Assembly: GCA_020062205.1 (NCBI GenBank)
Contig: JAGUWT010000284.1
Span: 1-43,668, forward strand
DNA from: Thermodesulfovibrionales bacterium
Lineage (GTDB): Bacteria > Nitrospirota > Thermodesulfovibrionia > Thermodesulfovibrionales > SM23-35
Reading direction: 5' to 3'
Length of the DNA stretch: 43,668 nt
In this document: piece after piece, positions 2,477-39,168 of the stretch
Layout: every line of letters starts with the position of its first letter
Numbering within the stretch: the first letter of the stretch is position 1
Position numbers and translations under genes: made by a program
The notes under the pieces: model-generated
Seen by the model: the letters and a program-made list of their open reading frames with translations, nothing else
What the model was told of the DNA's origin: nothing
Databases searched by the model: none

Positions 2477-3601
2477 ATGAGTAATTTAATAGAGTCAACA
2501 GAAGATATAAAGAGGTTCTATAAAGACAAGAGATGTCTGGTAACGGGTGGCTTTGGATTTGTCGGCAGCCACGTTGTTGAATCTCTTGTGAAAGCCGGTG
2601 CAGAAGTTCATGTCCTCGATATTGATACGGATGAGAATCGGGATTCATTAATTAACCTCTGCGGCTTAAGAGATAAGGTTCATATTATTACTGCTGACAT
2701 TACCGATAAAATTGCTATGGAAGAGATCATTCGACAGATTAAATGCGATATCATTTTCCATTTTGCTGCAGCAGCAACAGTCGTAGAAAAGGCAATGGAT
2801 CTGCCTTACTTAACTGTTTTGGCGAATACGATGGGACTTGTCAATATCTTAGAGGCAGTCAGGAAAATGAATAATTCAATCTATTCTGTTCTCTTCTCAT
2901 CTACTGACAAGGTATATGGAGAAGCATCGGAACTTCCCTATAAAGAGAATGCAACCCCTCTCAAGGCTGTAGGACTGTACGATTCAGCAAAAATGGCAGC
3001 AGATGTTCTTGCAAAATCATACGCTGAGGTTTTTAAAGTTAATGTTGTCATTGTAAGACTCTGTAATCTCTATGGTCCCTATGACTTCAATATTGACTAC
3101 AGGCTCATACCAAAGTCAATGAAGCACATTTATGGAGAGGGGAGGGCACCAGAACTCTATTTTCATTCTCTGGATCATTTCAGAGATTACTTATATATTG
3201 ACGATGCTGTCAGGGCCATGCTGCTCCTCGCTAAGGAAAAAAAATGTTTTGGAGAGATTTATAATATGCCCGGATGTAAGTATGCTTCAACTCCTGGCAT
3301 CCTGAAAGAAATAATAAATAGGGTAGCAGAGGTGGAAAGGAAACTTAATGGAGAAATCGGGGATCAGATAACGGCCAGAGGGATAAGGATAAAAATGGGC
3401 GACCCCCAACATATTGTCATTGAGAAACAGCATTTATGTGGTGAAAAGATAAAAGATTCTGTTGGCTTTGTTCCTGAGATCAGTTTTGAGGATGGCTTGG
3501 AAAGAACGATATTGTTTTATAGGGAATATTTTCAAAATCAAAAGAAGAGTATAGTAGTCAGTATACAGGAGACAGAAGGCAGAATGCAGGAGGCGGTATA
3601 A
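2477..3601 (+). CDS. NAD-dependent epimerase/dehydratase (extended SDR)
   Basis: RBS aggagg at 2465-2470. Rossmann motif VTGGFGFVGSHVV and catalytic YDSAK (YxxxK). The last ~10 codons (QETEGRMQE) are encoded by the 7-nt repeat arm of the downstream cassette. Confidence 0.85.
   Translation: MSNLIESTEDIKRFYKDKRCLVTGGFGFVGSHVVESLVKAGAEVHVLDIDTDENRDSLINLCGLRDKVHIITADITDKIAMEEIIRQIKCDIIFHFAAAATVVEKAMDLPYLTVLANTMGLVNILEAVRKMNNSIYSVLFSSTDKVYGEASELPYKENATPLKAVGLYDSAKMAADVLAKSYAEVFKVNVVIVRLCNLYGPYDFNIDYRLIPKSMKHIYGEGRAPELYFHSLDHFRDYLYIDDAVRAMLLLAKEKKCFGEIYNMPGCKYASTPGILKEIINRVAEVERKLNGEIGDQITARGIRIKMGDPQHIVIEKQHLCGEKIKDSVGFVPEISFEDGLERTILFYREYFQNQKKSIVVSIQETEGRMQEAV
3565..3592. repeat. left arm of four-helix-bundle cassette A: (NCAGRAG) x4, 7-nt tandem units
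   Basis: Units are acaggag acagaag gcagaat gcaggag. It is complementary to the right arm at 3971-3997 at 23 of 27 positions. Three of the four mismatches would be G-U pairs in RNA. Confidence 0.75.
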
Positions 3602-3961
3602 ATGAAGGCTAAGGTTTTTGAAGATCTTGGTGTTTGGCAGAAAAGCCACCGGTTTGTCCTTGACGTGTACAGGTTGACCCAGTCCTTCCCGAATTACGAA
3701 CGTTTCGGTTTAGTTTCTCAAATAAGACGTTCGGCTGTCTCCGTCCCAGCAAATATTGCCGAAGGCTTTAAGAAAAGAGGATTACCTGATAAGCTGCGGT
3801 ATTTCAATATATCACAAGGTTCATTGGAAGAAACGCGCTATTATCTGATCCTGGCTAACGATCTTGGATATGCTGACACAAAAAACCTAAAAGAGAATCT
3901 CGACGAAATTAGCCGCATGATAGACGGATACATGCAATCCATAAAGAATAGGCAAACGTAA
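3602..3961 (+). CDS. four-helix-bundle protein (23S rRNA intervening-sequence protein family)
   Basis: 119 aa. The ATG follows the upstream TAA directly. Hallmark residues: FEDLGVWQKSHRF..VYRLTQSFPNYERFGLVSQIRRSAVSVPANIAEGF..SQGSLEETRYYLILANDLGY. Confidence 0.9.
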   Translation: MKAKVFEDLGVWQKSHRFVLDVYRLTQSFPNYERFGLVSQIRRSAVSVPANIAEGFKKRGLPDKLRYFNISQGSLEETRYYLILANDLGYADTKNLKENLDEISRMIDGYMQSIKNRQT

Positions 3962-3962
3962 A

Positions 3963-3997
3963 TCTCCTGTCTTCTGTATTCTGTCTTCTGTCTCCTA
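3963..3997. repeat. right arm of cassette A: (TCTTCTG-like) x5, 7-nt tandem units
   Basis: Units are tctcctg tcttctg tattctg tcttctg tctccta. It is the reverse complement of the left arm. Confidence 0.75.
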
Positions 3998-5041: not shown

Positions 5042-5071
5042 AGCCACGAATTGACACAAATGGACACGAAT
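5042..5071. repeat. left arm of an empty cassette: 10-nt units agccacgaat tgacacaaat ggacacgaat
   Basis: Inverted with respect to 5187-5216. The first unit is perfectly complementary and the other two match at 7 of 10 positions. Confidence 0.7.
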
Positions 5072-5186
5072 AAAGACAAAATCCTATATCAAGATTTATC
5101 ATATAAAATTATCTATAGGAAAAACTTTGCGTTTCTTTGCGCTCTTTGCGGTGAACTATTAGCTTCATTAGAATTGATTCCGCCTT

Positions 5187-5216
5187 ATTTGTGTAAATTC
5201 GTGGCCATTCGTGGCT
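5187..5216. repeat. right arm of the empty cassette: atttgtgtaa attcgtggcc attcgtggct
   Basis: Reverse complement of the left arm family. The arms enclose a 115-nt loop (5072-5186) with no credible ORF. Confidence 0.7.
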
Positions 5217-5245: not shown

Positions 5246-6232
5246 ATGTATCAGCTGAAAGATAAGGTTTGGTTGTCGGCCAACAGGATTTTCGCTGCTA
5301 TAGAAGCAAAGAAAAATATTTCAGATCGGTCCAGGGAAAAAGCGATTTCCTGGTTTCGCAGTGTGGTTATATCGGGTGCAGGTTTCCCGGTTAGTACGGG
5401 CCAAAATATATCATACCCGGAAGTTACCGGGTATATTATTCCAACTCTTTATGAGGTCGGGGAAAAAGATTTTGCAAGGGATTTGGCCCTATGGCTGATT
5501 TCTGTGCAACACCCTGACGGCGCCTTTTGCGCGCCAGACGGGATGCCCTACACTTTTGATACTGGTCAGGTTTTACGCGGCCTGTTGACGGTACTGGATG
5601 ACATGCCTCAAGCGAAAGAGTCTACTATAAAGGCCTGTGACTGGATTCTTACTCAGATTCAATCTGACGGAAGAATTACCACTCCATCGACTGATATGTG
5701 GCGCCTGCCTGAAGATAAGATGGTCAACGACAATATTCACCTGTATGTTTTGCCACCCCTCATGGAAGCGGGCAGGAGACTTGGGAAGTCCGAATATGTA
5801 GATGCTTCCCGTCATGCATTAACGTATTACAAGCAACGTCCTGATTTGATATCGTTCACGACACTATCCCATTTCTATGGATATGTTATGGAAGCGCTCT
5901 TTGATTTGGGAGAAACGGATCTGGCGAAACAAGGCATGAAAGAAGTAGCCGCATTGCAGAAATTCAATGGAAGCATACCTGCATATCCAGGCGTAGATTG
6001 GGTATGCACTCCCGGCGTCGCCCAACTGGCCATTGTATGGTACAAGCTGGGGATGAGCGACCGGGGGGATGCTGCTTTAAGATATCTGAAAGGAATCCAG
6101 AATGACAGTGGTGGTTTCTTTGGGAGTTATGGCAAAGGAGCCAACTATTTCCCTCGTGAAGAGCTTCCCTGGGCAGCAAAGTATTTCTTAGACGCCTGTC
6201 ATTGGTCTCAAACCTCTGCGCCTTTGCGGTGA
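5246..6232 (+). CDS. alpha/alpha-toroid-like protein (prenyltransferase / terpene-cyclase-type repeats), function unknown
   Basis: 328 aa with repeated Q/H-x-x-DG-x-F type segments: VQHPDGAF, IQSDGRI, LQKFNGSIP, IQNDSGGFFG. The last codons (SAPLR-stop) lie in the ctttgcggtgaac repeat. Confidence 0.45.
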   Translation: MYQLKDKVWLSANRIFAAIEAKKNISDRSREKAISWFRSVVISGAGFPVSTGQNISYPEVTGYIIPTLYEVGEKDFARDLALWLISVQHPDGAFCAPDGMPYTFDTGQVLRGLLTVLDDMPQAKESTIKACDWILTQIQSDGRITTPSTDMWRLPEDKMVNDNIHLYVLPPLMEAGRRLGKSEYVDASRHALTYYKQRPDLISFTTLSHFYGYVMEALFDLGETDLAKQGMKEVAALQKFNGSIPAYPGVDWVCTPGVAQLAIVWYKLGMSDRGDAALRYLKGIQNDSGGFFGSYGKGANYFPREELPWAAKYFLDACHWSQTSAPLR

Positions 6233-6251
6233 ACAGTTACGAGACTTCAAT

Positions 6252-7388
6252 ATGCGGATATCTATTTTCACATCTGATATTGATAAAACGGCATCGGAGG
6301 GGGTAACTGTATTAGATGGTGTAAATTCATCCAGCCATGCGCTTACCAATGATAGTCTTTATGTCACAGGCTATGGATGGCCAACTTTGAAATTAGACTC
6401 CAGGAGAGTCTATCCTCTTGAGCGCCGCCATAAATTGAGAACAAAGTTTTTTTGCAACCTCCTCAGCGCAATAGATAATAACAAGCGTATTCCTGCTTCG
6501 TTAGCACTCATTGCGGTTTATTTCATACAAAGAGAGATATTCGATACTTTGTTATCTTTTGTCCCTGATGCGTTGATCCTTTCCGGCCTACGTTGGAACA
6601 AGGAATTTAGATTTTTTATTAAAAGAAAAATGCCGGATCTTCCTTGCTATTGCAAGCATGATCGTATCGAATTACCGCCTGAAGGGCATTGGAAAAAATA
6701 TGACCCATCGGTGAAAGTCAGCATCGTTCTTCCAACATATAACGGAGCCAAGTATATCCGAAAATCAATCAATAGCTGCCTGGAACAAACCCATAGTAAT
6801 TTGGAATTAATTATAGTGGACGATTTTTCAACCGATGAAACACCTCAAATTATTAACTCCTATTCAGATAAACGGATAAAATACATTAGGCATCCCACAA
6901 ATCTCAAGCTCCCCCGAGCCTTGAATACAGGCTTTAAGCACGCTACGGGTGAGTATCTAACCTGGACATCAGATGATAATTTTTATGATGTAAATGCCAT
7001 AGAAACAATGCTCAAATTTCTATTAACATATCCGCAAATAGACTATGTGTATACGGATGAATACCATATTGATGAAAATGACAATATAAATAAATACTTT
7101 GCCGTAGGACCGGTTGAAAGTTTGCAATTAGACAACTTGATCGGGGGATGTTTTCTGTATCACAGAAGGGTCTACGAGGAGATAGGAGAATATGACCCGG
7201 ATACTTATCTGGCCGAAGATTATGACTATTGGATTCGCATATCCAAACGGTTTCGTATGCAAAGATTGCGCATACCTCTTTACTATTACCGCCTTCACAA
7301 AGACTCGCTTACCGTAAAATATGGGAAATACGGGACGAAGCTTGCCGGAGAAGTTGGGGATATTGTCAAAAAGAGGCATAAGAAATGA
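6252..7388 (+). CDS. family 2 glycosyltransferase with a ~150-aa N-terminal extension
   Basis: GT-A motifs VSIVLPTYNGAKYIRKSINSCLEQT, LELIIVDDFSTDET, WTSDDN and AEDYDYWIR. The start is uncertain; an internal ATG at about 6630 is possible. Confidence 0.8.
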   Translation: MRISIFTSDIDKTASEGVTVLDGVNSSSHALTNDSLYVTGYGWPTLKLDSRRVYPLERRHKLRTKFFCNLLSAIDNNKRIPASLALIAVYFIQREIFDTLLSFVPDALILSGLRWNKEFRFFIKRKMPDLPCYCKHDRIELPPEGHWKKYDPSVKVSIVLPTYNGAKYIRKSINSCLEQTHSNLELIIVDDFSTDETPQIINSYSDKRIKYIRHPTNLKLPRALNTGFKHATGEYLTWTSDDNFYDVNAIETMLKFLLTYPQIDYVYTDEYHIDENDNINKYFAVGPVESLQLDNLIGGCFLYHRRVYEEIGEYDPDTYLAEDYDYWIRISKRFRMQRLRIPLYYYRLHKDSLTVKYGKYGTKLAGEVGDIVKKRHKK

Positions 7389-9502: not shown

Positions 9503-10279
9503 ATGAGAATTTTAATATTGATGTATCACATGATATCGAGGACGAACATAAAAATGGAAAAGAGGTATGCCCTTGTTCCCGAGAGATTCAGGCAGCAGTT
9601 AAGGTATCTTAAATGGAGAGGGTATGCACCGATTAGCCTTGACGATTTACACAACTATTTTATTAATAAGACTATTAGCCTTCCTGATAAACCAGTAATC
9701 ATAACCTTTGACGACGGATATATGGATAACTACGAAAATGCCTTACCGATCCTGAAAGAACAGAATGTCCCGGCTACCCTCTTCATAGTCAGTGGGCTTA
9801 TCAATAAAACGAACCGATGGATAATAAGCGAAGGATATCCAGAAAGACCGCTAATGGGATGGACCGAAATTCGAGAAATGCAGAAGAATGGTATGACGAT
9901 CGGTTCCCATACTGTAAATCATTGCCGTTTAACTACCTTAGATCTTAAAGATGCAAAACGGGAGATCGAGGATTCAAAGAAATTCCTCGAAGATAGCCTC
10001 GGTACTCAGATCAACCATTTTGCTTATCCCTATGGTGATATGAAGGATTCTATTATGAATATGACAAGAGATGCAGGATACAGGACAGCCTGTTCTACGA
10101 GGTCCGGGTTTAATTCAGAACAAGTAAGTCCCTATGAATTAAGGAGGCTTGAGATTTATGGTACAGATACCCTTTGGAAATTTGCATTAAAACTAACCTA
10201 TGGGACAAACGATGGCAACTTACTCCTTCCTGCAAGATACTACATGAAAAGAATGGCTGAGAGACTTAATCGTTATTAG
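9503..10279 (+). CDS. polysaccharide deacetylase (CE4 / NodB homology domain)
   Basis: Motifs ILMYHMI, ITFDDGYMDNYENALPILKE, ATLFIV, IGSHTVNHCRL and FAYPYGD. The stop lies inside the GTTATT repeat arm. Confidence 0.9.
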   Translation: MRILILMYHMISRTNIKMEKRYALVPERFRQQLRYLKWRGYAPISLDDLHNYFINKTISLPDKPVIITFDDGYMDNYENALPILKEQNVPATLFIVSGLINKTNRWIISEGYPERPLMGWTEIREMQKNGMTIGSHTVNHCRLTTLDLKDAKREIEDSKKFLEDSLGTQINHFAYPYGDMKDSIMNMTRDAGYRTACSTRSGFNSEQVSPYELRRLEIYGTDTLWKFALKLTYGTNDGNLLLPARYYMKRMAERLNRY

Positions 10280-10309
10280 GTTATTACGTTATTAAGTTAC
10301 TTTGTTATT
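10271..10309. repeat. left arm of four-helix-bundle cassette B: (GTTATTNN) x5, 8-nt tandem units
   Basis: Sequence is cgttatta ggttatta cgttatta agttactt tgttatt. The segment gttattacgttatt (10280-10293) is perfectly complementary to aataacgtaataac (10713-10726). Confidence 0.75.
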
Positions 10310-10702
10310 ATGGCTATCATCAGGACATTTGAAGATTTGGATGTATACAAGCTTGCAAGAGAATTTCGAAAGAACATATACAAAATGGTAAAGATTCTAC
10401 CGGAAGAGGAAAAATATAATCTATCTTCACAAATGCGCCGTGCGGCCTTATCTGTTACAAATAACATTGCCGAAGGATTTGGATGCTATCATTATCAAGA
10501 AAATATACAATTTTGCAGACAATCAAGAGGTTCAATCAATGAGTTGATAGATGATCTTAATACATGTATAGATGAGAATTACATTTCAAGAGATGTCTAT
10601 CATGATATAAAAGAAGAAGCTTATAGATTACTAAAAGTATTAAATTCTTATATAGCCAGCCTACAAAGACAAAAATTACGCAATAACGCAATAACTCAAT
10701 AA
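10310..10702 (+). CDS. four-helix-bundle protein (23S rRNA intervening-sequence protein family)
   Basis: 130 aa. Hallmark residues: FEDLDVYKLAREFRKNIYKMVKILPEEEKYNLSSQMRRAALSVTNNIAEGFG..SRGSINELIDDL. The C-terminal LRNNAITQ-stop is encoded by the repeat arm. Confidence 0.9.
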   Translation: MAIIRTFEDLDVYKLAREFRKNIYKMVKILPEEEKYNLSSQMRRAALSVTNNIAEGFGCYHYQENIQFCRQSRGSINELIDDLNTCIDENYISRDVYHDIKEEAYRLLKVLNSYIASLQRQKLRNNAITQ

Positions 10703-10750
10703 TGTGATAACCAATAACGTAATAACTTAGTAACCCAATAACGCAATAAT
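10674..10750. repeat. right arm of cassette B: (AATAACNN) x~9, 8-nt tandem units
   Basis: Sequence is ttacgc aataacgc aataactc aataatgtg ataacc aataacgt aataactt agtaaccc aataacgc aataatt. It is in inverted orientation relative to 10271-10309. Confidence 0.75.
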
Positions 10751-12416: not shown

Positions 12417-13409
12417 ATGATGAACGAGCGGGTAAGCGTAATAACCACGGTACTAAATGAGGCTAAGTCAATAGAAAGCCTACTTCAAGTCTTATTAGCT
12501 CAGTCCCATAAGCCCGAAGAAATTATCATTGTTGATGGTGGCTCATCAGACGGCACGGTTGAAATAGTTAAGAAATATTCAAATATTAACGACGACATTA
12601 ATCTGATTGTGAAAGAAGGGGTAAATATTGCAGAGGGGAGGAACATTGCTATTCAGAATGCTAAATATCCTCTGGTCGCAGTTATTGATGCAGGCTGCAG
12701 GCCAGATAAAAGGTGGCTGGAGGAATTGATTAAACCTTTCGAGAGAAATAATCCCCTGGATGCGGTAGCAGGATTGGTTAAAGTCGAATCGCACAATCTA
12801 TTTGAATTTTTTAGTGGTTTGTTGACTTTACCAGGTTGCCTGGAAGAAATTTCTGAAAATAACTTTCCCATGTATGGGCGTTCCGCTGCTTTTAAAAAAG
12901 ATGTCTGGGAGAAGGCAGGAGGTTATCCTGAATGGCTTTATACAGCGGAAGATTCTCTTTTTGAAGAAAAGCTAAGAAAGATGGGTGCAAATATCAAGTT
13001 GGCAAAACAGTCCATCGTACATTGGCGGCCCCGAAAGACCCTCTGGAAGATGGCGAAGATGTTCTATCTTTACGGTAGGGGGGCAGGTAGGATAGGTAAG
13101 AGCCTCAGTGGTGCTTATTATCATCTCAGAAATTATCTATTAGGGGTTGTGCTATTGATGATATCTTTTTTCTATCCTTTAACATTGATACTTTTCGCTG
13201 CTGGTTTGGCTTATATTTACAAGGGATTTTACAGGCCAATTATCAGACGGGTCAAAAGGGCACATCCAGGATGGAAGACAGAATTTTATGTCCCTCTGAT
13301 CGTATTCATACGGACGCTCAGCTATTCCATTGGTCTTCTTGTGGGGAATTATGAGTATAAACACGTATCTGGATTTAAAGAGAACCTTGATGCTTATATG
13401 AGGGAATGA
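12417..13409 (+). CDS. family 2 glycosyltransferase with a C-terminal membrane region
   Basis: Motifs VSVITTVLNEAKSIESLL, IIIVDGGSSDGT, VIDAGC and TAEDSLF. Hydrophobic C-terminal helices (LLGVVLLMISFFYPLTLILFAAGLAYIY). Confidence 0.85.
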   Translation: MMNERVSVITTVLNEAKSIESLLQVLLAQSHKPEEIIIVDGGSSDGTVEIVKKYSNINDDINLIVKEGVNIAEGRNIAIQNAKYPLVAVIDAGCRPDKRWLEELIKPFERNNPLDAVAGLVKVESHNLFEFFSGLLTLPGCLEEISENNFPMYGRSAAFKKDVWEKAGGYPEWLYTAEDSLFEEKLRKMGANIKLAKQSIVHWRPRKTLWKMAKMFYLYGRGAGRIGKSLSGAYYHLRNYLLGVVLLMISFFYPLTLILFAAGLAYIYKGFYRPIIRRVKRAHPGWKTEFYVPLIVFIRTLSYSIGLLVGNYEYKHVSGFKENLDAYMRE

Positions 13410-13452
13410 AGAACATAAGAAAGTTGGTTTGCATTTACAAAAAAACGCTTAT

Positions 13453-13481
13453 TTGACATTGTATTATCTGTTCAATAGAAT
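13453..13481 (+). promoter_or_regulatory. sigma70-type promoter candidate for the Uma2 gene
   Basis: TTGACA (13453-13458), an exact 17-nt spacer, then TAGAAT (13476-13481). It is followed by RBS aggagg and ATG 13510. Confidence 0.5.
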
Positions 13482-13509
13482 ATAAACAAGAACCAATAGG
13501 AGGTTCCTT

Positions 13510-14061
13510 ATGGCACCGACTGTTACAGAAAAGAAAAAATATACCTACGAAGATTACCTTAAAACCCCTGAGGACGAGATATATGAACTCATAGAAGGAG
13601 AATTGCTTATGACACCATCGCCTATACCAAAGCATCAAAGGATTTCAAGGGAGCTTGAATTCGAAATATTAAAATTTGTTAAGGCGAATGACCTTGGAGA
13701 AGTCTTTTATGCACCGTGTGATGTATATCTTGATGATGAGAATGTTATACAGCCTGATATACTGTTTATCTCAAAAGAGAGGTTGAATATTATAGGTGAA
13801 AAGAACATACAGGGCGCACCAGACCTTGTGGTAGAGATAATCTCAGAGAACACTGCCTACAGGGACCTTGTGCAAAAAAAGAAATTATACGCAAGATTTG
13901 GTGTAAAGGAATACTGGATAGTAATTCCAAAGGAAGAATTAATAGAGGTTTATATTTTAAAGGATAACACCTACATGCTTTATAAGACCTATAGTAAGGA
14001 TGACACCCTTGAATCACCCTATCTGAAGGACTTGAAGATAGGATTAAAAAGTATATTCTAA
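13510..14061 (+). CDS. Uma2 family endonuclease (DUF820, restriction-endonuclease-like fold)
   Basis: Motifs YTYEDYLKTPEDEIYELIEGELLMTPSP, KHQRIS, IQPDILFISKERL, GAPDLVVEIIS and FGVKEYWIV. Confidence 0.9.
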   Translation: MAPTVTEKKKYTYEDYLKTPEDEIYELIEGELLMTPSPIPKHQRISRELEFEILKFVKANDLGEVFYAPCDVYLDDENVIQPDILFISKERLNIIGEKNIQGAPDLVVEIISENTAYRDLVQKKKLYARFGVKEYWIVIPKEELIEVYILKDNTYMLYKTYSKDDTLESPYLKDLKIGLKSIF

Positions 14062-14127
14062 ACCATCCTGAACTTAATAACTTAGTAACTTGATACTAAG
14101 AAGTTCATAAGTAATACCACATAATTG

Positions 14128-14212
14128 GTCATTCGCGCTTGTCGGGAATCTTTCTTCAAGAAGGATGCCGGACTTCGACGTGAGCTCAGTCGAACGACAA
14201 GCCGGCATGACA
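14128..14212. repeat. palindromic intergenic element (TGTCATT...AATGACA family), copy 2
   Basis: It starts gtcattcgcgcttgtcgggaatctttctt and shares gcttgtcgggaatc(c/t)ttctt with copy 1. It ends caagccggcatgaca. Internal hairpin: ttcgac-gtgagctca-gtcgaa. Confidence 0.65.
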
Positions 14213-14332
14213 GAAGAAAAAGAGTCATGTGACCTTACTCATGGTCTCATTAGTAACTCGATAACTCAATTACTTAGTTTAGGGATGAGAATGAGAAGAG
14301 GTTATGGGTTTCAAGTTATGAGTATAGGTTAT

Positions 14333-14359
14333 TTGAATAGATGGAATTTGTGATATAAT
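14333..14359 (+). promoter_or_regulatory. possible extended -10 promoter for the UPF0175 gene
   Basis: TGaTATAAT at 14351-14359, with TTGAAT at 14333-14338. The spacer is only 15 nt. Confidence 0.3.
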
Positions 14360-14404
14360 AGTCAAATTAGAATTTTTGAAATTTTGAAACTTAGGAGCAA
14401 GATT

Positions 14405-14701
14405 ATGAATATACTAGAAAAGGAAGCTAAGGCACTTATAAAAAGGGGTATATATAAAGATGAAAAATCACTTTTTGAAGATGCCCTTAGAGCATTACTT
14501 GTATCTAAGCCTGGCCTGAGAGTGGAAGCTGCCATAGAGCTTTATAAAGCAAAAGAAATATCTCTTAAGAAGGCAGCAGAAATTGCATCTCTTGATATAG
14601 AGTCCTTCAAAGACGAGTTGTCAAGGAGGGGATTAAAAATAGAATTAGAACCCCCTTCCAAGGACATTCTGGATAAAGGGGTGTCTTTGCTCCTCAAATG
14701 A
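14405..14701 (+). CDS. UPF0175-family antitoxin-like protein
   Basis: RBS aggag, then ATG 14405. The C-terminal AIELYKAKEISLKKAAEIASLDIESFKDELSRRGL matches the UPF0175 helix-turn-helix signature. No partner toxin ORF follows. Confidence 0.7.
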   Translation: MNILEKEAKALIKRGIYKDEKSLFEDALRALLVSKPGLRVEAAIELYKAKEISLKKAAEIASLDIESFKDELSRRGLKIELEPPSKDILDKGVSLLLK

Positions 14702-14786
14702 TTAATGACAATCATCTTTGCCATTATTGTTACCTCTTTGAAATAGTATATTAAACCTGCAAACTCTCAATAATTAATCAATCAAA

Positions 14787-15854
14787 ATGTCTAATCCTCT
14801 CGTCAGTGTCGTAATCCCTACTTATAATACCGAAAAGTACATAACCGAAGCCCTGAAAAGCGTGTTCCAACAAAAGTACAGGCCGATTGAGGTTATCGTT
14901 GTTGACGATGGTTCTACTGATAATACGGCAGAGATTATAAGAAAATATGTTCAAACTGTTCAAAGCGTTCGAGATGTAGACTCGTGTCAAACAAGTGAAA
15001 CCATCGAACAACTCGAACAAGCTAAGCGATCCAACGAGCGGAGCGATCGAACAATACGAACATCTCCCACAAGCAAAGCGATCGAACTTATCTATATTTA
15101 TCAGAAAAACGGTGGCCGGGCCAGCGCAAGAAACACGGGTATCAGAGCTGCCAGAGGTAAATATGTTGCCTTCCTCGACAGTGATGATCTCTGGACATTG
15201 TGGAAACTGGAAAAGCAGGTTCATACAATGGAGGAGAATACCAAAATCGATTTCCTCTTTGGTGATAAACAACGGTTTTCAGATGGAGGGAAAATAGTCA
15301 TACATTCCATGTTCCAAAAAAATGGTTATGATGAAAAATTTTTTGGAGATCCCCTCTATGTTCGAAATGCCTATCAGAAGCTCTTGAAAGCCAATTTCAT
15401 CCCTACCGGAACCGTGATTTTGAGAAGAGACTGTTTTGAGAGGACAGGTTTGTTTGATGAAAGCATCTATGCAGAGGATTATGAATTCTGGCTCAGGATC
15501 GCCCTTTTTAACACAATAGGGTATGCCAATGAATTATGGGAATTAGAAAGGGATCGTGAGGGGAGTGGTTCAAAAAACCTTAAGGCAGTCTATTTATCAA
15601 ATATTCAAACCCTTGAGAAGCACGAGAGAGCATATCGAGAGAGATTATCGAAACTGCATATTAATCTCAATAACATAATCCGTGATGCCTATAGAGACAC
15701 AGGATATTTTTTCCTCACCCATGACAAATTGCTGGCCAGGGATTGTTTTAAAAAAAGCCTTTTGAGGGGCTTTCAAATAAAAACTTTGTTCTATTGGATC
15801 GCCACCTTTTTAGGGGTATCCTTTGTTAAAGCAATTCAACAGGCAAGACAATAG
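14787..15854 (+). CDS. family 2 glycosyltransferase carrying an in-frame ~45-aa repeat-derived insertion
   Basis: Motifs VSVVIPTYNTEKYITEAL, VIVVDDGSTDNT, NGGRASARNTGI, FLDSDD and AEDYEFWLR. The low-complexity segment VQTVQSVRDVDSCQTSETIEQLEQAKRSNERSDRTIRTSPTSKA lies between the DxS and ARN motifs. Confidence 0.85.
   Translation: MSNPLVSVVIPTYNTEKYITEALKSVFQQKYRPIEVIVVDDGSTDNTAEIIRKYVQTVQSVRDVDSCQTSETIEQLEQAKRSNERSDRTIRTSPTSKAIELIYIYQKNGGRASARNTGIRAARGKYVAFLDSDDLWTLWKLEKQVHTMEENTKIDFLFGDKQRFSDGGKIVIHSMFQKNGYDEKFFGDPLYVRNAYQKLLKANFIPTGTVILRRDCFERTGLFDESIYAEDYEFWLRIALFNTIGYANELWELERDREGSGSKNLKAVYLSNIQTLEKHERAYRERLSKLHINLNNIIRDAYRDTGYFFLTHDKLLARDCFKKSLLRGFQIKTLFYWIATFLGVSFVKAIQQARQ
14949..15088. 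repeat. GTTCRA/TCGAAC 9-nt-periodic palindromic element, copy in the GT2 coding sequence
   Basis: Left units are gttcaaact gttcaaagc gttcgagat. Right units include atcgaacaa ctcgaacaa, then cgaacaata cgaacatct and gcgatcgaac. It is homologous to 30891-30978. Confidence 0.75.
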
Positions 15855-29030: not shown

Positions 29031-30242
29031 ATGAAGATCCTCCATATCCTCGACCATTATAAGCCCCACTTCAGTGGGTATGTCTTCAGGACAAGTTATA
29101 TCCTGAGATATCAAAAGGAGTTGGGCCTTGAGCCAATAGTGGTTACCTCACCAAAGCATGGTAATGCAGAGAAATCCCTCGAAGAGATTGACAATATAAA
29201 AATCTACAGGGCACCAGCCAATAATTTTGGGGGAATTCCATTCCTGAAAGAGGCACGATTAATGAAAGTACTTCGGGACAGGATTGTAGAAGCTGTCAGG
29301 AGAGAAAAACCTGATATCATCCATGCTCATTCACCAAGCCTCAATGGCATACCAGCATTGAGGGTAGGGAGGAAGTACAGTATACCTGTTGTCTATGAAA
29401 TAAGGGCTTTCTGGGAAGACGCTGCTGTTGACCATGGGACTTTCCGTGAAGGCTCTCTTCGATACAAGTGGAGCAGATTCATAGAGACAGAATTATTGAA
29501 AAGGGTTGATGCGGTATTCACAATATGTAGGAGTCTCAAGAAGGAGATAGTAGCAAGAGGTATAGAGGATAATAAAGTTACAATAATACCAAACTGTGTC
29601 GATGGAGGATATTTTTCACCCACAGCATATGATAAGGAGATAGCTGATAGATATGGCTTGGTTGATAAGATTGTCTTTGGTTTTATTGGTTCATTCTACC
29701 ACTATGAAGGGATAGATCTCTTGATAGATAGCTATAGAAATACTCTGAAAAAAAATAGAGATACACGGTTGCTCCTGGTCGGTGATGGACCTGAAAGAGT
29801 TGCACTTTATAAAAAGGCAGAAGAAAATGGGTTACTCGGCCATGTTATTTTTACCGGAAAGGTTCCCCATGAGGATGTAAAGAGATACTACTCAGTGATA
29901 GATTTCCTTATTTATCCAAGAAAGAGCATAAGACTTACTGAGCTCGTGACCCCTTTAAAACCCCTTGAGGCTATGGCAATGGGGAAGATTGTTGTTGGCA
30001 GTGATGTCGGTGGGATTAGAGAGTTGATAACACCTGATAAAGATGGACTACTGTTTAGAGCAGGAGATGCTGATGAACTTTCAAGATTGTTGATTGATCT
30101 GGCGCTGAATAATAAAGACCTTAAAAGAATCTCAATGACAGCAAGAGAGACAGTAGAGCATCAGCATAAATGGGAATCGGCTGTCAAAAAATACCTACCG
30201 ATATATGAGCATTTGATAAAAAAATTAAAAAATAACCAATAA
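29031..30242 (+). CDS. glycosyltransferase family 4, of the type found next to exosortase-locus AsnB genes
   Basis: ATG 29031 (MKILHILDHYKPHFSGYVFRT). The listed start at 28977 overlaps the VanZ-like gene. Motifs TELVTPLKPLEAMAMGKIVVGSDVGGIRELI. The C-terminal KNNQ-stop lies in an AATAAC array. Confidence 0.85.
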   Translation: MKILHILDHYKPHFSGYVFRTSYILRYQKELGLEPIVVTSPKHGNAEKSLEEIDNIKIYRAPANNFGGIPFLKEARLMKVLRDRIVEAVRREKPDIIHAHSPSLNGIPALRVGRKYSIPVVYEIRAFWEDAAVDHGTFREGSLRYKWSRFIETELLKRVDAVFTICRSLKKEIVARGIEDNKVTIIPNCVDGGYFSPTAYDKEIADRYGLVDKIVFGFIGSFYHYEGIDLLIDSYRNTLKKNRDTRLLLVGDGPERVALYKKAEENGLLGHVIFTGKVPHEDVKRYYSVIDFLIYPRKSIRLTELVTPLKPLEAMAMGKIVVGSDVGGIRELITPDKDGLLFRAGDADELSRLLIDLALNNKDLKRISMTARETVEHQHKWESAVKKYLPIYEHLIKKLKNNQ

Positions 30243-30269
30243 ACTAATAACTCAATAATTTTCTAAACC

Positions 30270-32216
30270 ATGTGTGGCATAGTCGGAATCATAAATACCG
30301 TTTTAACACCTGAAAGGTCTCTTTTAGAGAAGATGTGTAGGATAATGACCCACAGAGGGCCTGATGGGGAGGGGTGTTACATTGAAGGACCTATCGCTCT
30401 TGGACACAGGAGATTGAGCATTATAGACCTTGAGGGTGGAAAACAACCAATGAGTAATGAAGATGACACAGTGTGGATTACCTTCAATGGAGAAATATAT
30501 AACTTTCCCGATGTTCAAAGAGAACTTGAAAAAAAAGGACATCGATTTAAAACAAGAAGCGATACTGAAGTGATTATTCATGCATATGAAGAATATGGGA
30601 AAGAGTGCATAAAGTATTTCAGGGGGATGTTTGCATTCGGAATTTGGGATAGTAAAAAAAAGGAACTCTTTCTTGCACGTGACCGTCTTGGGAAGAAGCC
30701 TCTTTACTATTATGTTGATGACAGGAGTTTTATCTTTGCCTCAGAAATAAAGGCAATCCTTCAGGATGAATATATAAAAAGAGAACTTGATGTAAAGGCA
30801 CTGGCTGATTACTTTACCTATCATTACGTTCCGTTTCCTGAAACAATATTCAAAGGCATACATAAACTGCCACCAGGACATTTAATGACTGTTCGAATTG
30901 TTCAAGATGTTCGAGACGTTCAAGTCGTTTCGAACAAGTGTAATGATCGAACGAGCGAAGCGATCGAACATATCGAATTTACTATTCATCAATACTGGGA
31001 TATTGAATATAAACCGGACTATTCTCTATCAGAACAGGAGTGGGTAGAGGCATTAAAGGAAAAACTGAAAGAAGCAGTCAGGATCAGGCTTATCAGTGAT
31101 GTGCCACTTGGGGCGTTTCTCAGTGGAGGGATAGATTCAAGCACTGTTGTTGCATTCATGAGTATGGTTCAGAACACACCTGTCAAAACATTCTCAATAG
31201 GGTTCAAAGAAGAGGATTTCAGCGAAGTGAAATATGCACGGGAGGTTGCCAAGAGGTTTGGAACTGAACATCAGGAAATGGTGGTCGAGCCCGATGCTAT
31301 AGAGGTATTACCAAAGCTCGCATGGGAATTTGACGAACCTTTTGCAGATTCTTCAGCCATACCTACCTATTATGTATCTAAAATGGCGAGGAAGTATGTA
31401 ACCGTCATCCTTTCTGGTGATGGCGGTGATGAAACCTTTGCTGGCTATAGGAGGTATCTATGGGCAAGGGATATGCATAAATACGACTGGATACCTCTGC
31501 CTTTGAGGGCAATAGTATTCGGAATTCCTGCTGCACTACTCCCAGATGGTATGAGAGGCAAAGGTATGCTCAGGCACCTTTCAAACGGTCCCTTTGAGCG
31601 ATATGCAGGTCTTAATACCTTTGGAGAACTGAACTCCCTCAAAAATCTCTTGAGCACAGATGTTCTGAACGAAGTCCAAAAGAGACAAAATGGGAGGTTG
31701 CATGACTATGCCTTTCTCAAGAAGTATTATGACTTCTGTAAGCATGACGACTATCTCACAAAGATACAATACATGGACACAAAGACCTACCTTGCTGAGG
31801 ATATTCTAACCAAGGTAGATAGGGCAAGCATGCTCTGTAGTCTGGAGACCCGTGCTCCATTACTTGATCATGAGGTAATTGAACTTGTTGCCAGAATTCC
31901 ATCATCCATGAAGATAAAAGATGGTGAGACGAAATATATCCTCAAAAAGGCAATGGATGGAATCCTCCCTGATACGATTTTGTATAGAAAAAAAATGGGC
32001 TTTGGGGTGCCTCTTATATATTGGTTTAAGAAAGATTTAACACAATATGCACGTGAGGTTCTTCTTTCTCAGGAAACTAAACATCGAGGAATATTTAATC
32101 AGAGCTATATCAAGAATATTTTGGAGAGACATCAGAAAAAGGGAAGAGACCTGAGTGCTAAGATATGGGCACTTCTTTTTTTCGAACACTGGTGCAGGAA
32201 CTGGCTTGATACATAA
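30270..32216 (+). CDS. asnB: asparagine synthase (glutamine-hydrolysing) family amidotransferase, exosortase-locus type, with an in-frame repeat insertion
   Basis: MCGIVGII (Cys2 nucleophile), HRRLSIIDL, RDRLGKKPLYYY and the PP-loop GAFLSGGIDSSTV. The extra segment IVQDVRDVQVVSNKCNDRTSEAIEHIE follows PPGHLMTV. Confidence 0.9.
   Translation: MCGIVGIINTVLTPERSLLEKMCRIMTHRGPDGEGCYIEGPIALGHRRLSIIDLEGGKQPMSNEDDTVWITFNGEIYNFPDVQRELEKKGHRFKTRSDTEVIIHAYEEYGKECIKYFRGMFAFGIWDSKKKELFLARDRLGKKPLYYYVDDRSFIFASEIKAILQDEYIKRELDVKALADYFTYHYVPFPETIFKGIHKLPPGHLMTVRIVQDVRDVQVVSNKCNDRTSEAIEHIEFTIHQYWDIEYKPDYSLSEQEWVEALKEKLKEAVRIRLISDVPLGAFLSGGIDSSTVVAFMSMVQNTPVKTFSIGFKEEDFSEVKYAREVAKRFGTEHQEMVVEPDAIEVLPKLAWEFDEPFADSSAIPTYYVSKMARKYVTVILSGDGGDETFAGYRRYLWARDMHKYDWIPLPLRAIVFGIPAALLPDGMRGKGMLRHLSNGPFERYAGLNTFGELNSLKNLLSTDVLNEVQKRQNGRLHDYAFLKKYYDFCKHDDYLTKIQYMDTKTYLAEDILTKVDRASMLCSLETRAPLLDHEVIELVARIPSSMKIKDGETKYILKKAMDGILPDTILYRKKMGFGVPLIYWFKKDLTQYAREVLLSQETKHRGIFNQSYIKNILERHQKKGRDLSAKIWALLFFEHWCRNWLDT
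30891..30978. repeat. GTTCRA/TCGAAC 9-nt-periodic palindromic element, copy in the asnB coding sequence
   Basis: Units are gttcgaatt gttcaagat gttcgagac gttcaagtc gtttcgaac aagtgtaat gatcgaacg agcgaagcg atcgaacat atcgaat. That is ten 9-nt units, about 30 codons. Confidence 0.75.
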
Positions 32217-32602: not shown

Positions 32603-35600
32603 TTGAAAAGGGAACACGAAGCATCACGCACCCGTATAGAAAAAGTACTATCGAAAATCTGGGCTGAAGTCCTCGGTCTTGAGCGAATCCACGTTGAGGA
32701 TAATTTTTTTGAGTTAGGTGGTGATTCTATCAATGTCCTTCAGGTGATCGCTATAGCCAATCGTGAAGGCTTACAATTTACTCCGAAACAGTTTTTTCAA
32801 CATCCTACCATTGCTGAGCTAGCTACCGTAACGGTTCCACTTTCAACTTCATGTGCAGAACAGGGTATCGTCAAAGGCAGGATACCACTAACTCCTATTC
32901 AGCACTGGTTTTTTGAACAGGGAGTCCCAGAACCAGAGCAATGGACACAGTCTATATTGCTTGAAGTGCATCACCCTCTTAAAGTTTCTATATTGCAAGA
33001 AGCCATTCGACACTTGCTTGTTCATCACGATGCACTGCGTGTGCGCTTTACCCCAGGGGAGCTGGGTTGGGAACAGTTTTGCGTTGGTAACGAAGAATTA
33101 GTACCGTTTAACAGGTTAGATTTGTCAGGACTTTCAGGTGGAGAGTTAAAACATGTCATTGAGGCTGAAGCAGCAAAATTGCGTGCTGGTTTAAACATAT
33201 CAAAGGGACCACTTATGCAAGTAGCCCTCTTTGACCTTGGCACTTCCCAACCGAATCGACTACTTATAGTCATTCATCATTTAGTAGCGGACGGTGTTTC
33301 ATGGCGGATCTTGCTGGGGGATCTCCAGACAGCCTATATGCAACTCAGCCGTGGTGAATTAATAAAACTGCCTGCCAAGACGACCTCGTTAAAGCAGTGG
33401 GCAGAACGACTTGAGGCATATGCACAATCAATAGAGCTGCGACATGAGATGAAATACTGGCTTGCACAGCCATGGAGTCAAGCAGGATGTTTACCTGTGG
33501 ACTTTCCAGATGGTGACAATACCGAGGCTTTGGCTTGGGCTGTGTCGGTTTCGCTCACTGCTGAAGAGACAAAGGCTATTTTACAGGAGATTCCCAAGGT
33601 ATACCATGTCCGTGTCAACGATATCTTGATCACGGCGCTGGTGCAGGCCTTTGCACCATGGATCGGAAAGGATTGTCTTCTCATAGATCTAGAAGGTCAC
33701 GGTCGGGAGGCTATTTTCGATGATGTGGATCTGTCTCGGACGGTGGGGTGGTTTACCTCAATTTTTCCTGTGCTGCTGGATCTTAAGAATGCGTCAGGAC
33801 TCAGGAGTACCATGAAGTTGACACAGGAACAAATGAATCATATTCCGCATAAAGGTATTGACTATGGCATACTGCGCTACCTCAGCAGTGCTGAAAATGC
33901 TCGTCGACTTCAAAGTCTGCCTCAGGCCGAGGTTAGTTTTAACTACTTTGGACAATTCGATCAACTATTTTCAGGCACATCTATGTTTAAGCCAGCCTCT
34001 GAAACTATTACTCCTGTACAGTTAAAGGGTCTATTGCAAGAGTCATATGGGTTAAAGGGAACACGGAGGCATTTAATAGATATTAGTGGAAGCGTATTTA
34101 ATGGCAAGCTTTGGTTTAACTGGACGTATAGCAAGAACGTTCATCGCGAAACGACAATCCGTTACCTTGCTGAAGACTACGTGGCTGCACTCCGCTCGAT
34201 TATTAATAGCTATCAGTCTACCGAGGCCGAGTCTTACAAACCTTTCAACTCTCGGGGGACCTTCTTATGCAATGAAGAGTTTGATGCTAAAAATAAACAG
34301 CTCATTGAAGGCAGCGCTACAGGTGATAAGAGTTTGGAAAATGTTGAGGCTATTTTCCCGCTTTCCGCCATGCAGCGGGGGCTTTTATTTCACAGTCTTC
34401 AGAATCCCGAGTTGGGTATCTACATCGTGCAGGATTGTTACATGCTTTATGGTGACTTAAACATGCCGGCATTTAGGGAGGCTTGGATGCATGTATCAAA
34501 GCGACATACCGCCCTGCGGACTGTATTTATCCCAAAAGGGCACAAACAGCCACTTCAGGCCATTCACAAGGTAGTAAATTTATTAATCGAAGAACATGAT
34601 TGGCCTGATCTGGGAGCAACCGATCAGAAAGAGCAAATAGAGTCTTTCCTCAAGATGGACCGCGAAAAGGGCTTCGACCTTACAAAGAGTCCACCACTGC
34701 GTCTTGCCATAATCCGATTAACCAAAGACGTCTATCAATTTATTTTAAGTTTCCATCACGCATTACTTGATGCTTGGTCTGTGTCTTTACTAATCAGGGA
34801 AGTTTTTGACTTCTATCAGGCACTCTGTTATGGGAGTGAGTACAAAATGGATTCAAACCATCCCTATATGGATTATATTACATGGCTTCATCAGCAGGAT
34901 CTGTCCCAGGCTGAGGGTTTCTGGCGGCAGATACTGAAAGGGTTTACAGCACCGACACCTTTAGGAATGATTGCAGAGCGTAATGGTTTATCATGCCATG
35001 TTGATGGTTTTAGTGAAGGAGAAATTAAGTTATCTGCAGCCACTACGGCAGCGTTGCAGTCCTTTGCACAGCGTCATCATCTCACTCTTAATACCCTGAT
35101 TCAGGGTTCGTGGGCCCTGTTGCTAAGTCACTATAGTGGTGAGAAGGAAGTAGTCTTTGGGGTCGTTGTGTCTGGTCGTCCACCTGCTCTGGAAGGAGTC
35201 GAGTCCATGGTAGGACTATTTATCAATACCTTACCAGCACGGGTACAGATACATGACAAGGAGACACTATTTCTTTGGTTGAAGAAGCTTCAAAACCAGC
35301 AAGTTGAGATGAGACAGTATGAATATAGTCCTTTGGTAAAGGTAAAAGAGTGGAGTGAAATTCCAAGCGGTGTTCCTCTGTTCGAGAGTATATTGCTTTT
35401 CCAGAATTACCCGGTGGACGATATGTTAGTAGCGAGGCATGGAAACTTAAAGATAGAGAATGTACGAACAGTGGAAAGGACTAATTATCCACTTACCCTG
35501 GTAGCAATACCAGGTTCAGAATTAATATTGCGGCTCATGTACCATACCCCTCGTTTTAATGCTTCTACCATTGCCCAGATGCTTGACCATTTACAAACCT

Positions 35601-36472: not shown

Positions 36473-37211
36473 GGCACCACGGATATTAGATGGCATCCGG
36501 CAGTTGCTTGTTGGTGGAGATGCGCTTTCAGTTTCGCATGTTCTCAAAGCCCTTGAGGTTTTACACACCATACAGATCATCAACGGCTATGGTCCCACTG
36601 AGGGCACGACATTTACCTGTTGTTATACTATTCCTCGTCAACTTGATAAAACCGCGCTATCAATCCCTATAGGGCGTCCCATTTCCAATACACAAGTCTA
36701 CCTGCTTAATTCATATCTGCAGCCGGTGCCCGTTGGGGTTCCAGGTGAAATTTACATTGGAGGAGATGGTCTTGCCCGAGGCTATCTCAATCAGCCCGAA
36801 TTAACAGCCGAAAAGTTTATCCCCAATCTGTTCAATGATGACCCGGGTGCACACCTGTACAAGACAGGGGATCTGGCACGTTACCTGCCAGACGGTAATA
36901 TTGAGTTCATCGGTCGTCTTGACCATCAGGTGAAGATCCGTGGCTTCCGGATCGAGCTGGGAGAGATTGAGTCAGTGTTAGGACAACATCCCGCTGTTCG
37001 TCAAGTAGCGGTAATTACCCGTGAAGATGTACCCGGCAGCAAAAGCCTAGTAGCCTACATTGTCCCTGTTCGCGAAGGAGTTATCTCGGCACGGGAGATG
37101 AGGCATTTCTTGAAAGAAAAGCTACCAGACTATATGATTCCCTCTGCTTTTGTATTTTTGGAAGCTTTGCCGTTAACGCCGAATAACAAAATAAACCGCA
37201 AAGAGTTACCA
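35720..37211 (+). other. NRPS domain: adenylation (A) domain, spanning the frameshift at about 36461-36469
   Basis: Cores A1-A10 are present across the two frames. The hand-derived specificity code is D A F W L G G T F K. Confidence 0.8.
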
Positions 37212-39060: not shown

Positions 39061-39168
39061 TGTTATATCCAGACTATGTTAGAAATACATCAAAAAAGGG
39101 GAAGAGACCTGAGTGCCCCTTTGTGGGCATTGCTCTTTTTTGAATACTGGTGCAGGAATTGGATGTAG
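39061..39168 (+). pseudogene. remnant of the last 35 codons of an AsnB paralogue
   Basis: It translates to CYIQTMLEIHQKRGRDLSAPLWALLFFEYWCRNWM-stop. The C-terminus of the 30270..32216 product is SYIKNILERHQKKGRDLSAKIWALLFFEHWCRNWLDT. 24 of 35 residues are identical. A TAA lies immediately upstream and there is no N-terminal part. Confidence 0.85.

Follow-up and report, generated by a model that had tools for sequence, protein, structure and literature searches.

A family-2 glycosyltransferase (GT2) gene and asnB, a gene for an asparagine synthase homologue, both within a polysaccharide gene cluster of a Thermodesulfovibrionales bacterium, carry in frame two related palindromic sequences that we call the GTTCRA element. 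The window that we analysed is the whole contig (JAGUWT010000284.1, 43.7 kb), the sole contig available for the source organism. In all likelihood both segments are copies of one dispersed repeat element that inserted without loss of the reading frame. We also hold it to be probable, if with less assurance, that the complete statement applies, namely that this is a dispersed in-frame hairpin repeat, a gene-less derivative of a larger cassette, tolerated in open reading frames (ORFs) through its 9-nt period; to the specific claim that the element derives from cassettes carrying a PF05635 gene we give slightly less than an even chance. To our knowledge, high-frequency in-frame protein-coding palindromes have hitherto been treated as largely a peculiarity of Rickettsia, and the GTTCRA element would be an unrelated family that behaves in a similar way in several phyla of free-living and mostly uncultivated bacteria.

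The first copy (14949-15088, +) lies in the GT2 gene (14787-15854, +; 355 aa), where it corresponds to residues about 55-101, and the second (30891-30978, +) lies in asnB (30270-32216, +; a glutamine-hydrolysing asparagine synthase homologue of 648 aa), where it corresponds to residues about 208-237. The two share one design: some four 9-nt units form the left arm, the loop spans about 5 nt, and the right arm contains both 9-nt units and longer ones of 17 nt, which read TYGAAC + RAG-YGAAR-YGA. The initial annotation had proposed a 9-nt-periodic GTTCRA/TCGAAC element at both places; its units could be located at each, with the addition of the 17-nt spacing in the right arm. The left arm of the GT2 copy is built of GTTCAA at 14949 and 14958, GTTCGA at 14967 and a degenerate GTAGAC at 14976, all at 9-nt spacing. 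After a loop at 14982-14986, the right arm has units at 14987 (TCAAAC), 15004, 15013, 15030 (TCCAAC), 15047, 15056 (ACGAAC) and 15082, spaced by 17/9/17/17/9/26 nt, with exact TCGAAC at 15004, 15013, 15047 and 15082. Its 11-nt spacers carry a GYGNARC-type motif (AAGTGAAACCA, AAGCTAAGCGA and GAGCGGAGCGA), and a 10-nt AGCAAAGCGA stands ahead of 15082. The asnB copy has GTTCGA at 30891, GTTCAA at 30900, GTTCGA at 30909 and GTTCAA at 30918, followed by TCGAAC at 30930, 30947 and 30964 (17-nt spacing, with spacers AAGTGTAATGA and GAGCGAAGCGA) and by TCGAAT at 30973. Those right-arm units that are 17 nt long carry an 11-nt spacer with a mini-hairpin motif of the GCGAAGC/GTGAAAC type. Over the whole window the GTTCRA hexamer shows no enrichment (48 observed versus 43 expected); it is the clustering at these two sites, not the overall number, that is remarkable.

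Comparison of the two copies resulted in a Smith-Waterman score of 52, against a maximum of 30 among 781 control tiles of the window (mean 15.8, s.d. 2.2), and in a 26-nt blastn match of 92% identity (E = 8e-5). A hidden Markov model of 14 family members matched the window at these two sites only (E = 9e-27 and 3e-22), in keeping with the earlier proposal that asnB holds the same element. Owing to a 1-nt indel in the alignment of the copies, two stretches that they have in common, the core C[A/G]AACAAGTG (CRAACAAGTG) and AGCGATCGAAC, fall into one reading frame in GT2 and another in asnB; the similarity is therefore one of DNA. Codon usage within the element points the same way. At conserved residues the window GT2 gene and its homologue L003 have identical codons at 32 of 37 positions inside the element and at 122 of 225 outside it (p = 1e-4); the same test on asnB gave p = 0.045 against L126 and p = 0.004 against L127, and was not significant against L125. 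Such an excess at synonymous sites indicates either that the nucleotide sequence is under selection or that the copies have been homogenised, and is not expected of a neutral peptide spacer.

Both copies lie within genuine genes. The GT2 protein matches PF00535 at 121.6 bits, in two stretches that flank the insert, and the asnB product matches the Pfam families Asn_synthase and GATase; the homologues of both bear the names Desulfobacterales, Deltaproteobacteria or Nitrospirae, and the host organism is not Rickettsia. In an alignment of the window GT2 with 31 homologues of 43-78% identity (32 sequences in all), 14 of the 31 have six residues (PYMEQI-like) where the window protein has 49, some of them up to 69% identical and others distant, and the remaining 17 have inserts of 13-58 residues at that site. 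The homologous DNA element is present in L003, a GT2 of 74% identity. In AsnB the insert occupies a hairpin turn, flanked by ..PPGHLMTV and ..FTIHQYWD, that has 9-11 residues in insert-free orthologues (TVDVESDLS in those at 72% identity) and in the closest solved homologue, 7ylz, 30 in the window and up to 65 in others; the short hairpin of 7ylz leaves a gap opposite the insert. In the DNA of empty sites (L144, L145), the element stands in place of 3-6 loop codons. Judged by these alignments, both segments are insertions relative to the family baseline, as had been suggested for the GT2 gene.

The initial annotation had held that a homologous segment in distant orthologues would make the stretch ancestral rather than inserted, and the evidence here divides. 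Given that orthologues at 60-78% identity hold homologous inserts at the same site, the insertions are older than the source organism. The segment is nevertheless not ancestral to either family, because equally close and more distant orthologues lack it and its presence is patchy on distance trees, in which insert-bearing and insert-free sequences interleave for GT2 and AsnB alike. Inserts of the V-Q/R type fall into at least five separate groups of the AsnB tree, and orthologues also hold decayed remnants such as VQDVKNSQ..ERLE. One AsnB orthologue (P0123/L125) has a long form, ..TSETIEQVEH..EQAKRSNDSNLFNERNDRTIRT..RLEL, that corresponds in both peptide and DNA to the GT2 inserts found in the window and in P0002; the GT2 and AsnB families are therefore tied to one element.

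An AlphaFold2 model of the GT2 (mean predicted local distance difference test score, pLDDT, 86) retains the GT-A fold, with residues about 55-100, between helix 47-60 and strand 99-105, at pLDDT 33-51. The insert is thus predicted to be a low-confidence loop with the GT-A fold preserved. Insertion of the element accounts for the length-variable, low-complexity loops in the GT2, AsnB, TsaD and UvrD homologues that we examined.

A structural reason for this in-frame tolerance may lie in the unit itself. As derived from its sequence, a GTTCRA-NNN unit is free of stop codons in all forward frames, and the complementary unit yields a stop only as TTGAAC, in one frame. The earlier description of the element as stop-poor applies to the asnB copy, which leaves four of six frames open (4% of random windows do as well or better), and not to the GT2 copy, with two of six open, which is not unusual against random windows. 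The spurious ORFs on both strands that had been reported at the GT2 copy are indeed there (14778-15272(-) and 14995-15297(+)); the element can generate such ORFs and may split Pfam matches, as in GT2. We propose that a copy landing in a gene would stay in frame through its 9-nt, mostly stop-free unit, that later gain or loss of 9-nt units would be frame-neutral, that of 17-nt units not, and that copies in tolerant loop-coding positions would be translated as a hydrophilic, disordered surface loop. Once inserted, they would go on to acquire or lose units and to decay.

The element was also described as palindromic, and its arms are complementary; perfect pairing or a strong fold is not what we found for the coding copies. 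Against dinucleotide shuffles the fold z-scores are -0.5 (GT2 copy) and -1.2 (asnB copy), and against mononucleotide shuffles -1.1 and -3.9; the GT2 copy thus folds no better than its shuffles and the asnB copy modestly better. Given these weak z-scores, we do not claim a functional mRNA structure in the coding copies. Mostly intergenic members of the family fold as long hairpins (z of -4 to -16).

Relatives of the element were sought in one genome per species with a pattern of three GTTCRA units followed by TCGAAC, the broad class being defined by this pattern of our own. The scan returned at least 120 matches where our calculation gives about one for random sequence of that size. Among the matches listed are 58 loci with a direct and an inverted array, up to five of them in a single metagenome-assembled genome (MAG). 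The MAGs concerned are labelled Thermodesulfobacteriota/Deltaproteobacteria, Binatia, Acidobacteriota, Nitrospirota, Bacteroidota, Patescibacteria and others, taxon labels here and below being those of the MAG bins. Set aside as false positives were a gene conserved in Cupriavidus/Ralstonia (L040, L047, L051 and others) and plain repeats of 9 nt within GC-rich genes. Of ten matches in a metagenome scan, five are attributable to chance, and six pattern matches in viral contigs are mostly plain 9-nt coding repeats. At four loci (L021, L055, L067 and L112, in Thermodesulfovibrio-type, actinobacterial and unclassified MAGs) one-armed GTTCAA/GTTCGA arrays adjoin tRNA 3' ends; they matched the pattern because the tRNA T-arm itself supplies the required TCGAAC. 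GTTCRA equals tRNA positions 53-58, but a meaningful resemblance to the tRNA T-loop was considered and dropped, as the third spacer base is not consistently C.

The window copies belong to a narrower subfamily, with the core GAACRAGTGAAACGATYGAAC and 17-nt units. This core occurs in frame in TsaD (L052, a Saccharibacteria MAG) and in a UvrD-type helicase (L137). An ABC-F ATPase gene (L107) holds an in-frame array of the general family; Pfam confirms the identity of each of the three hosts. Intergenic subfamily copies are found at L011 and L092 (Desulfobacterales MAGs), the latter with four copies within 6.7 kb, at L042 and L057, and in the metagenome contigs L129, L132 and L136; close intergenic relatives come from MAGs labelled Desulfobacterales, Patescibacteria and Proteobacteria. 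The initial annotation had likened the open frame in two unrelated enzymes to Rickettsia palindromic elements (RPEs) and had called for a count of copies in the genome and in relatives, and further ones have turned up both in frame and between genes: the RPE-like in-frame behaviour is real and extends beyond this contig. Its suspicion that the element had not been described is consistent with our literature search, in which no published description of a GTTCRA element was found. A blastn search of the elements against plasmids gave no match, and Rfam recognised no family in the window, in the element region (E <= 10) or in 17 array loci, and no rRNA in the window. Further segments were noted at two of the subfamily loci. 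The TsaD gene of L052 (complement of about 6050-7300) has three further K/R/Q-rich segments, for example ETRDKRQEKQKK and RKNQRSKRCENQRFYKDQRYN, which are candidate inserts of other elements, and a predicted 423-aa ORF at L011 (3867-5138), just 3' of PF05635 genes, carries a different in-frame tandem-repeat insert (..SSIFNLQSSIFNLQSS..).

Two loci connect the GTTCRA element to PF05635 genes. At L137 a PF05635 gene (13180-13533) is directly preceded by GTTCAAATC GTTCAAAAT GTTCAAGTT, three GTTCAA units, and behind it stands a four-unit TYGAAC-type array in two copies, TAGAACGTC TTGAACGAC TTCAACGAA TTTAAC; read from its sequence, this is a hairpin element with a gene in the loop. The solo in-frame UvrD copy lies on the same contig, 12.6 kb from the PF05635 gene. 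At L011 a 119-aa PF05635 ORF lies between two complete GTTCRA elements with GAGCGAAGCGATCGAAC units, as in the asnB copy of the window. The PF05635 proteins of L137 and L011 are mutual best matches among seven compared, a hint, no more, that protein and repeat unit may travel together. The PF05635 ORFs of L011, L137 and the window belong to the PF05635/TIGR02436 family of four-helix-bundle proteins known from 23S rRNA intervening sequences (IVSs), with weak similarity to Avd of diversity-generating retroelements. We take the element for a repeat of non-coding origin that can fold back on itself, with a direct 9-nt array (GTTCRA + 3 nt) as left arm and a complementary TYGAAC array as right arm. 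Its full-length form would hold a PF05635/TIGR02436 (S23p) gene between the same inverted arrays, and solo hairpins would derive from such full cassettes. The window copies would be ORF-less derivatives, since the PF05635 ORF is absent from their loops of about 5 nt and present in L137 and L011. This cassette connection is plausible but unproven.

Arrays around PF05635 genes are not restricted to the GTTCRA type. All seven PF05635 genes in the loci that we fetched have flanking tandem arrays, and for five of them the inverted pairing exceeds that of all shuffles. Ten further genes, sampled independently from plasmids of cultured bacteria and without selection for repeats, each have tandem arrays alongside, inverted in eight (z of 5.5-17.6, beating all shuffles) and direct in two; in the combined set, 13 of 17 genes are flanked by inverted 7-9-nt repeat arrays that score above all their shuffles. 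The plasmid sample includes a true IVS within a 23S rRNA gene (L151) and three cyanobacterial plasmids (L146, L149, L150) in which PF05635 genes with heptamer arrays sit inside CRISPR-cas operons (cas10-cmr3; cas6-cas4), as expected of an inserted cassette; the arrays of L150 are direct, not inverted (CTAAAAG x15, CCAAAAG x10). On a Riemerella anatipestifer plasmid (L155) the PF05635 gene (362-778) stands between inverted 8-nt arrays, GGTTCAAG / CTTGAACC, whose unit has the GTTCAA core of the GTTCRA element but a different period. No PF05635 relatives of the window protein were found in viral contigs, and in the literature we found no paper linking short tandem arrays to PF05635 genes in general.

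The window itself holds two PF05635/TIGR02436 genes. The first (3602-3961) lies between inverted 7-nt arrays (3567-3996, +; CAGAAGG-type at 3567-3594 and TCTTCTG-type at 3963-3996), an architecture that matches the gene-bearing relatives of the GTTCRA element. The second (10310-10702) lies between inverted 8-nt arrays (10271-10749, +; GTTATTAA-type at 10271-10310 and AATAACGC-type at 10674-10749). A gene-less intergenic hairpin (5042-5216, +) has arms of about 10-nt CACGAAT-type repeats (5042-5073 and 5185-5216) that are 81% complementary, a fold z of -4.6 and a loop holding a CTTTGCG x3 array (5125-5150). Solo arrays of the 8-nt AATAAC-type unit that flanks the second PF05635 gene occur at 14071-14095 and 30227-30271, one of them 3' of a Uma2 gene and the other directly upstream of the asnB start codon. 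Every window array of 7-, 8- or 10-nt period that we followed up (3567-3996, 5042-5216, 10271-10749, 14071-14095 and 30227-30271) falls between genes, and both GTTCRA arrays fall within them, as would be expected if ORFs retain only arrays whose period is a multiple of three.

We entertained several other explanations. An unlikely one is that the GTTCRA element is a conventional miniature inverted-repeat transposable element (MITE) or repetitive extragenic palindrome (REP), mobilised in trans, for example by a REP-associated tyrosine transposase (RAYT) or an IS200/IS605-type enzyme acting on single-stranded hairpins, with its adjacency to PF05635 genes a matter of coincidental intergenic crowding. 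Like MITEs and the REP, REP doublet (REPIN-RAYT), Correia, enterobacterial repetitive intergenic consensus (ERIC) and BOX elements, it is small, dispersed, multi-copy, hairpin-forming and apparently non-autonomous, with occasional in-frame copies, and each flanking element at L011 is complete by itself. The GCGAAGC/GTGAAAC spacers match a motif known as a very stable mini-hairpin of single-stranded DNA (PMC13037366). In nearly all 11-nt spacers of the family, position 4 can pair with position 8 (C-G or T-A), which is compatible with a single-stranded intermediate but may reflect only one or two ancestral changes. Unlike the unique terminal repeats of such elements, the arms are arrays in which one unit recurs, inverted from one arm to the other; the copies have no GTAG-type head, and neither a target-site duplication nor an associated transposase or RAYT was seen, the latter in the surroundings of the 58 arrays. 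The only gene-bearing relatives carry PF05635, not a known transposase; the arrays of L137 abut the start and stop of the PF05635 gene; and PF05635 genes generally lie between inverted tandem arrays.

Quite improbable, in our judgement, is a functional cis-element, either a protein-binding array (possibly for a pentameric PF05635 protein) or an mRNA hairpin that tunes RNase III processing or translation of polysaccharide genes, although this would still allow a selfish origin. Conservation at synonymous sites would fit, arrays of 3-5 units look like iterated binding sites, and IVS stems have been reported as RNase III substrates (PMC4990558). By inspection, 9 of 10 subfamily copies, a small sample, are oriented like the local genes. 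The contexts are unrelated, however, the stems of the coding copies are decayed, orthologues do well without the insert and no binding protein is known. We regard as very improbable a protein-level module, in which a disordered or coiled linker selected for its function spread by recombination of coding segments and the DNA periodicity is a by-product of a V-Q/R-x repeat. The left arm is read in that one frame in GT2, AsnB, TsaD and UvrD, and the peptides of the long AsnB form and the GT2 insert are alike (TSETIEQ.., ..RSN.., ..DRTIRT). This explanation is largely refuted by the difference in frame between the window copies across the shared core and right arm; moreover, the ABC-F copy is in another frame, many copies are intergenic, the conserved sites are the synonymous ones and the GT2 insert is modelled as a low-confidence loop. 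Independent slippage expansions of 9-nt repeats in hypervariable loops, with convergent sequence and no mobile element, would suit the variable length of the sites (GT2 6-58 aa among the 32 aligned; AsnB 9-65 aa) and indels in multiples of three, but are extremely improbable in view of a shared core and 17-nt units that are not simple and yet recur in unrelated genes, intergenic DNA and different phyla, with a similarity between copies far above the window controls.

Several points weigh against an inserted dispersed repeat with a cassette origin, the reading we prefer. There are only two copies in the window, and mobility within one genome is presumed. No target-site duplication or defined termini emerged from filled and empty sites, and the boundaries of the element are fuzzy because the orthologues compared are only about 70% identical. 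An all-against-all BLAST of 1308 ORFs around the 58 arrays found no transposase or recurrent neighbour, no family occurring in more than two loci. The shared site in many AsnB and GT2 lineages could go back to one old insertion followed by decay, or to recombination between genes, instead of repeated insertion, and the neighbour-joining trees are no strong evidence on this point; the excess synonymous conservation could be due to gene conversion and not to constraint. The coding copies fold weakly and their palindromy is imperfect. The broad GTTCRA family, being selected by pattern, may mix unrelated arrays. Both searches with insert peptides, aimed at a census of host proteins, were empty: a profile of eight of them found no match at E <= 10 in 5.8 billion proteins, and the window peptide none at E <= 0.001 in 1.84 billion representatives, the queries probably being too short and of low complexity. 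Finally, the link of GTTCRA-type arrays to PF05635 rests on two cassettes (L011 and L137), and as the flanking elements of L011 are each complete, their adjacency to the PF05635 gene could be coincidental.

Among known systems, the element is best filed as joining two kinds, the in-frame palindromic repeats typified by RPEs and the stem-forming selfish inserts typified by rRNA IVSs. RPEs form consensus families of 100-150 bp, and they are not known outside Rickettsia or to contain internal short-period arrays; the GTTCRA element, modular and built of 9- and 17-nt units in variable number, is set apart from them by this description. RPEs are short palindromes that occur in frame within unrelated housekeeping or metabolic genes and also between genes (Ogata et al. 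2000, 2002; cited after the MITE review PMC10969869). As with RPEs, a peptide segment would be added and tolerated by the protein fold, with no transposase known, and in-frame insertion into unrelated genes was found for GT2 and AsnB here and for TsaD, UvrD and ABC-F elsewhere, the fold being preserved around a low-confidence loop in the AlphaFold2 model of the GT2. The GTTCRA element differs in occurring in MAGs labelled Desulfobacterales, Patescibacteria, Saccharibacteria and Proteobacteria, and in having gene-bearing, full-length relatives.

S23p-type IVSs are present in Coxiella, Leptospira, Xanthomonas and Brucella, and the Coxiella IVS is a selfish insert, excised by RNase III, whose stem has a variable number of tandem GACAGAT heptamers ahead of the S23p ORF (PMC4990558). 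The CAGAAGG-type units at 3567-3996 resemble these heptamers. Both window copies of the GTTCRA element share with IVSs a stem of terminal inverted repeats built from short tandem repeats, and a PF05635 gene between inverted tandem arrays is common to the window, L011, L137 and the true IVS of L151. In contrast to IVSs, the window copies have no PF05635 ORF, a unit of 9 nt instead of 7, and a location in protein-coding genes instead of helix 25 or 45 of 23S rRNA; they are presumably translated, not excised by RNase III. The palindromic amphipathic repeat coding elements (PARCELs) likewise are coding repeats with dyad symmetry in the DNA and a patchy distribution suggestive of horizontal transfer, but these protein-domain repeats of 25 residues (75 nt) lie in ORFs of unknown function and are defined by their protein sequence, not as inserts in enzymes. 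The heptamers of cyanobacterial short tandemly repeated repetitive (STRR) sequences were reportedly described by Mazel et al. in 1990. These heptamers and those of Xanthomonas are dispersed short-unit arrays, often convergent pairs able to form stem-loops, with a strain-variable number of units; unlike the GTTCRA arrays, they are described as mainly intergenic, and their 7-nt period frameshifts an ORF. About 190 arrays of the GGGAATC heptamer have been described in Xanthomonas genomes, with 70-75 inverted pairs per genome, in a paper that draws no link to PF05635 (PMC4692102).

A broader reading, which we consider possible but doubtful, is that selfish cassettes ending in inverted arrays of 7-10-nt tandem repeats form a very large class spread across phyla, with PF05635/TIGR02436 proteins as their partners in trans. 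Each protein lineage would be specific to one repeat unit, and hairpins without a gene would be non-autonomous derivatives. It would unite 23S rRNA IVSs, STRR-type heptamers, the Xanthomonas pairs and GTTCRA hairpins, the 9-nt GTTCRA lineage being the one that colonises genes in frame and remodels loops in uncultivated bacteria, including lineages of the candidate phyla radiation. The PF05635 association would offer a handle on the function of the S23p protein, on the spread of rRNA IVSs and on the origin of the short tandem arrays of cyanobacteria and Xanthomonas.

Other features of the window were noted in passing. Genes for a Uma2-family endonuclease and a UPF0175 protein (13510-14701) are wedged among the glycosyltransferase genes of the cluster. 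Between the genes for a phosphopantetheinyl transferase and the next glycosyltransferase, a 99-nt stretch (39064-39162) is 80% identical to the 3' end of asnB (32106-32204) and, by this similarity, looks like the relic of a second asnB copy. At 32603-38243 the adenylation domain of a nonribosomal peptide synthetase is split over two ORFs, with AMP-binding positions 1-270 ending at 36472 and positions 291-384 starting at 36504, for which a frameshift or stop, a short insertion and an error of assembly are all possible causes. A small dispersed repeat is found in two intergenic regions (2295-2324 and 14125-14154) in opposite orientation, 80% complementary and with the internal palindrome TTCCGAACAAGTCGGAA.

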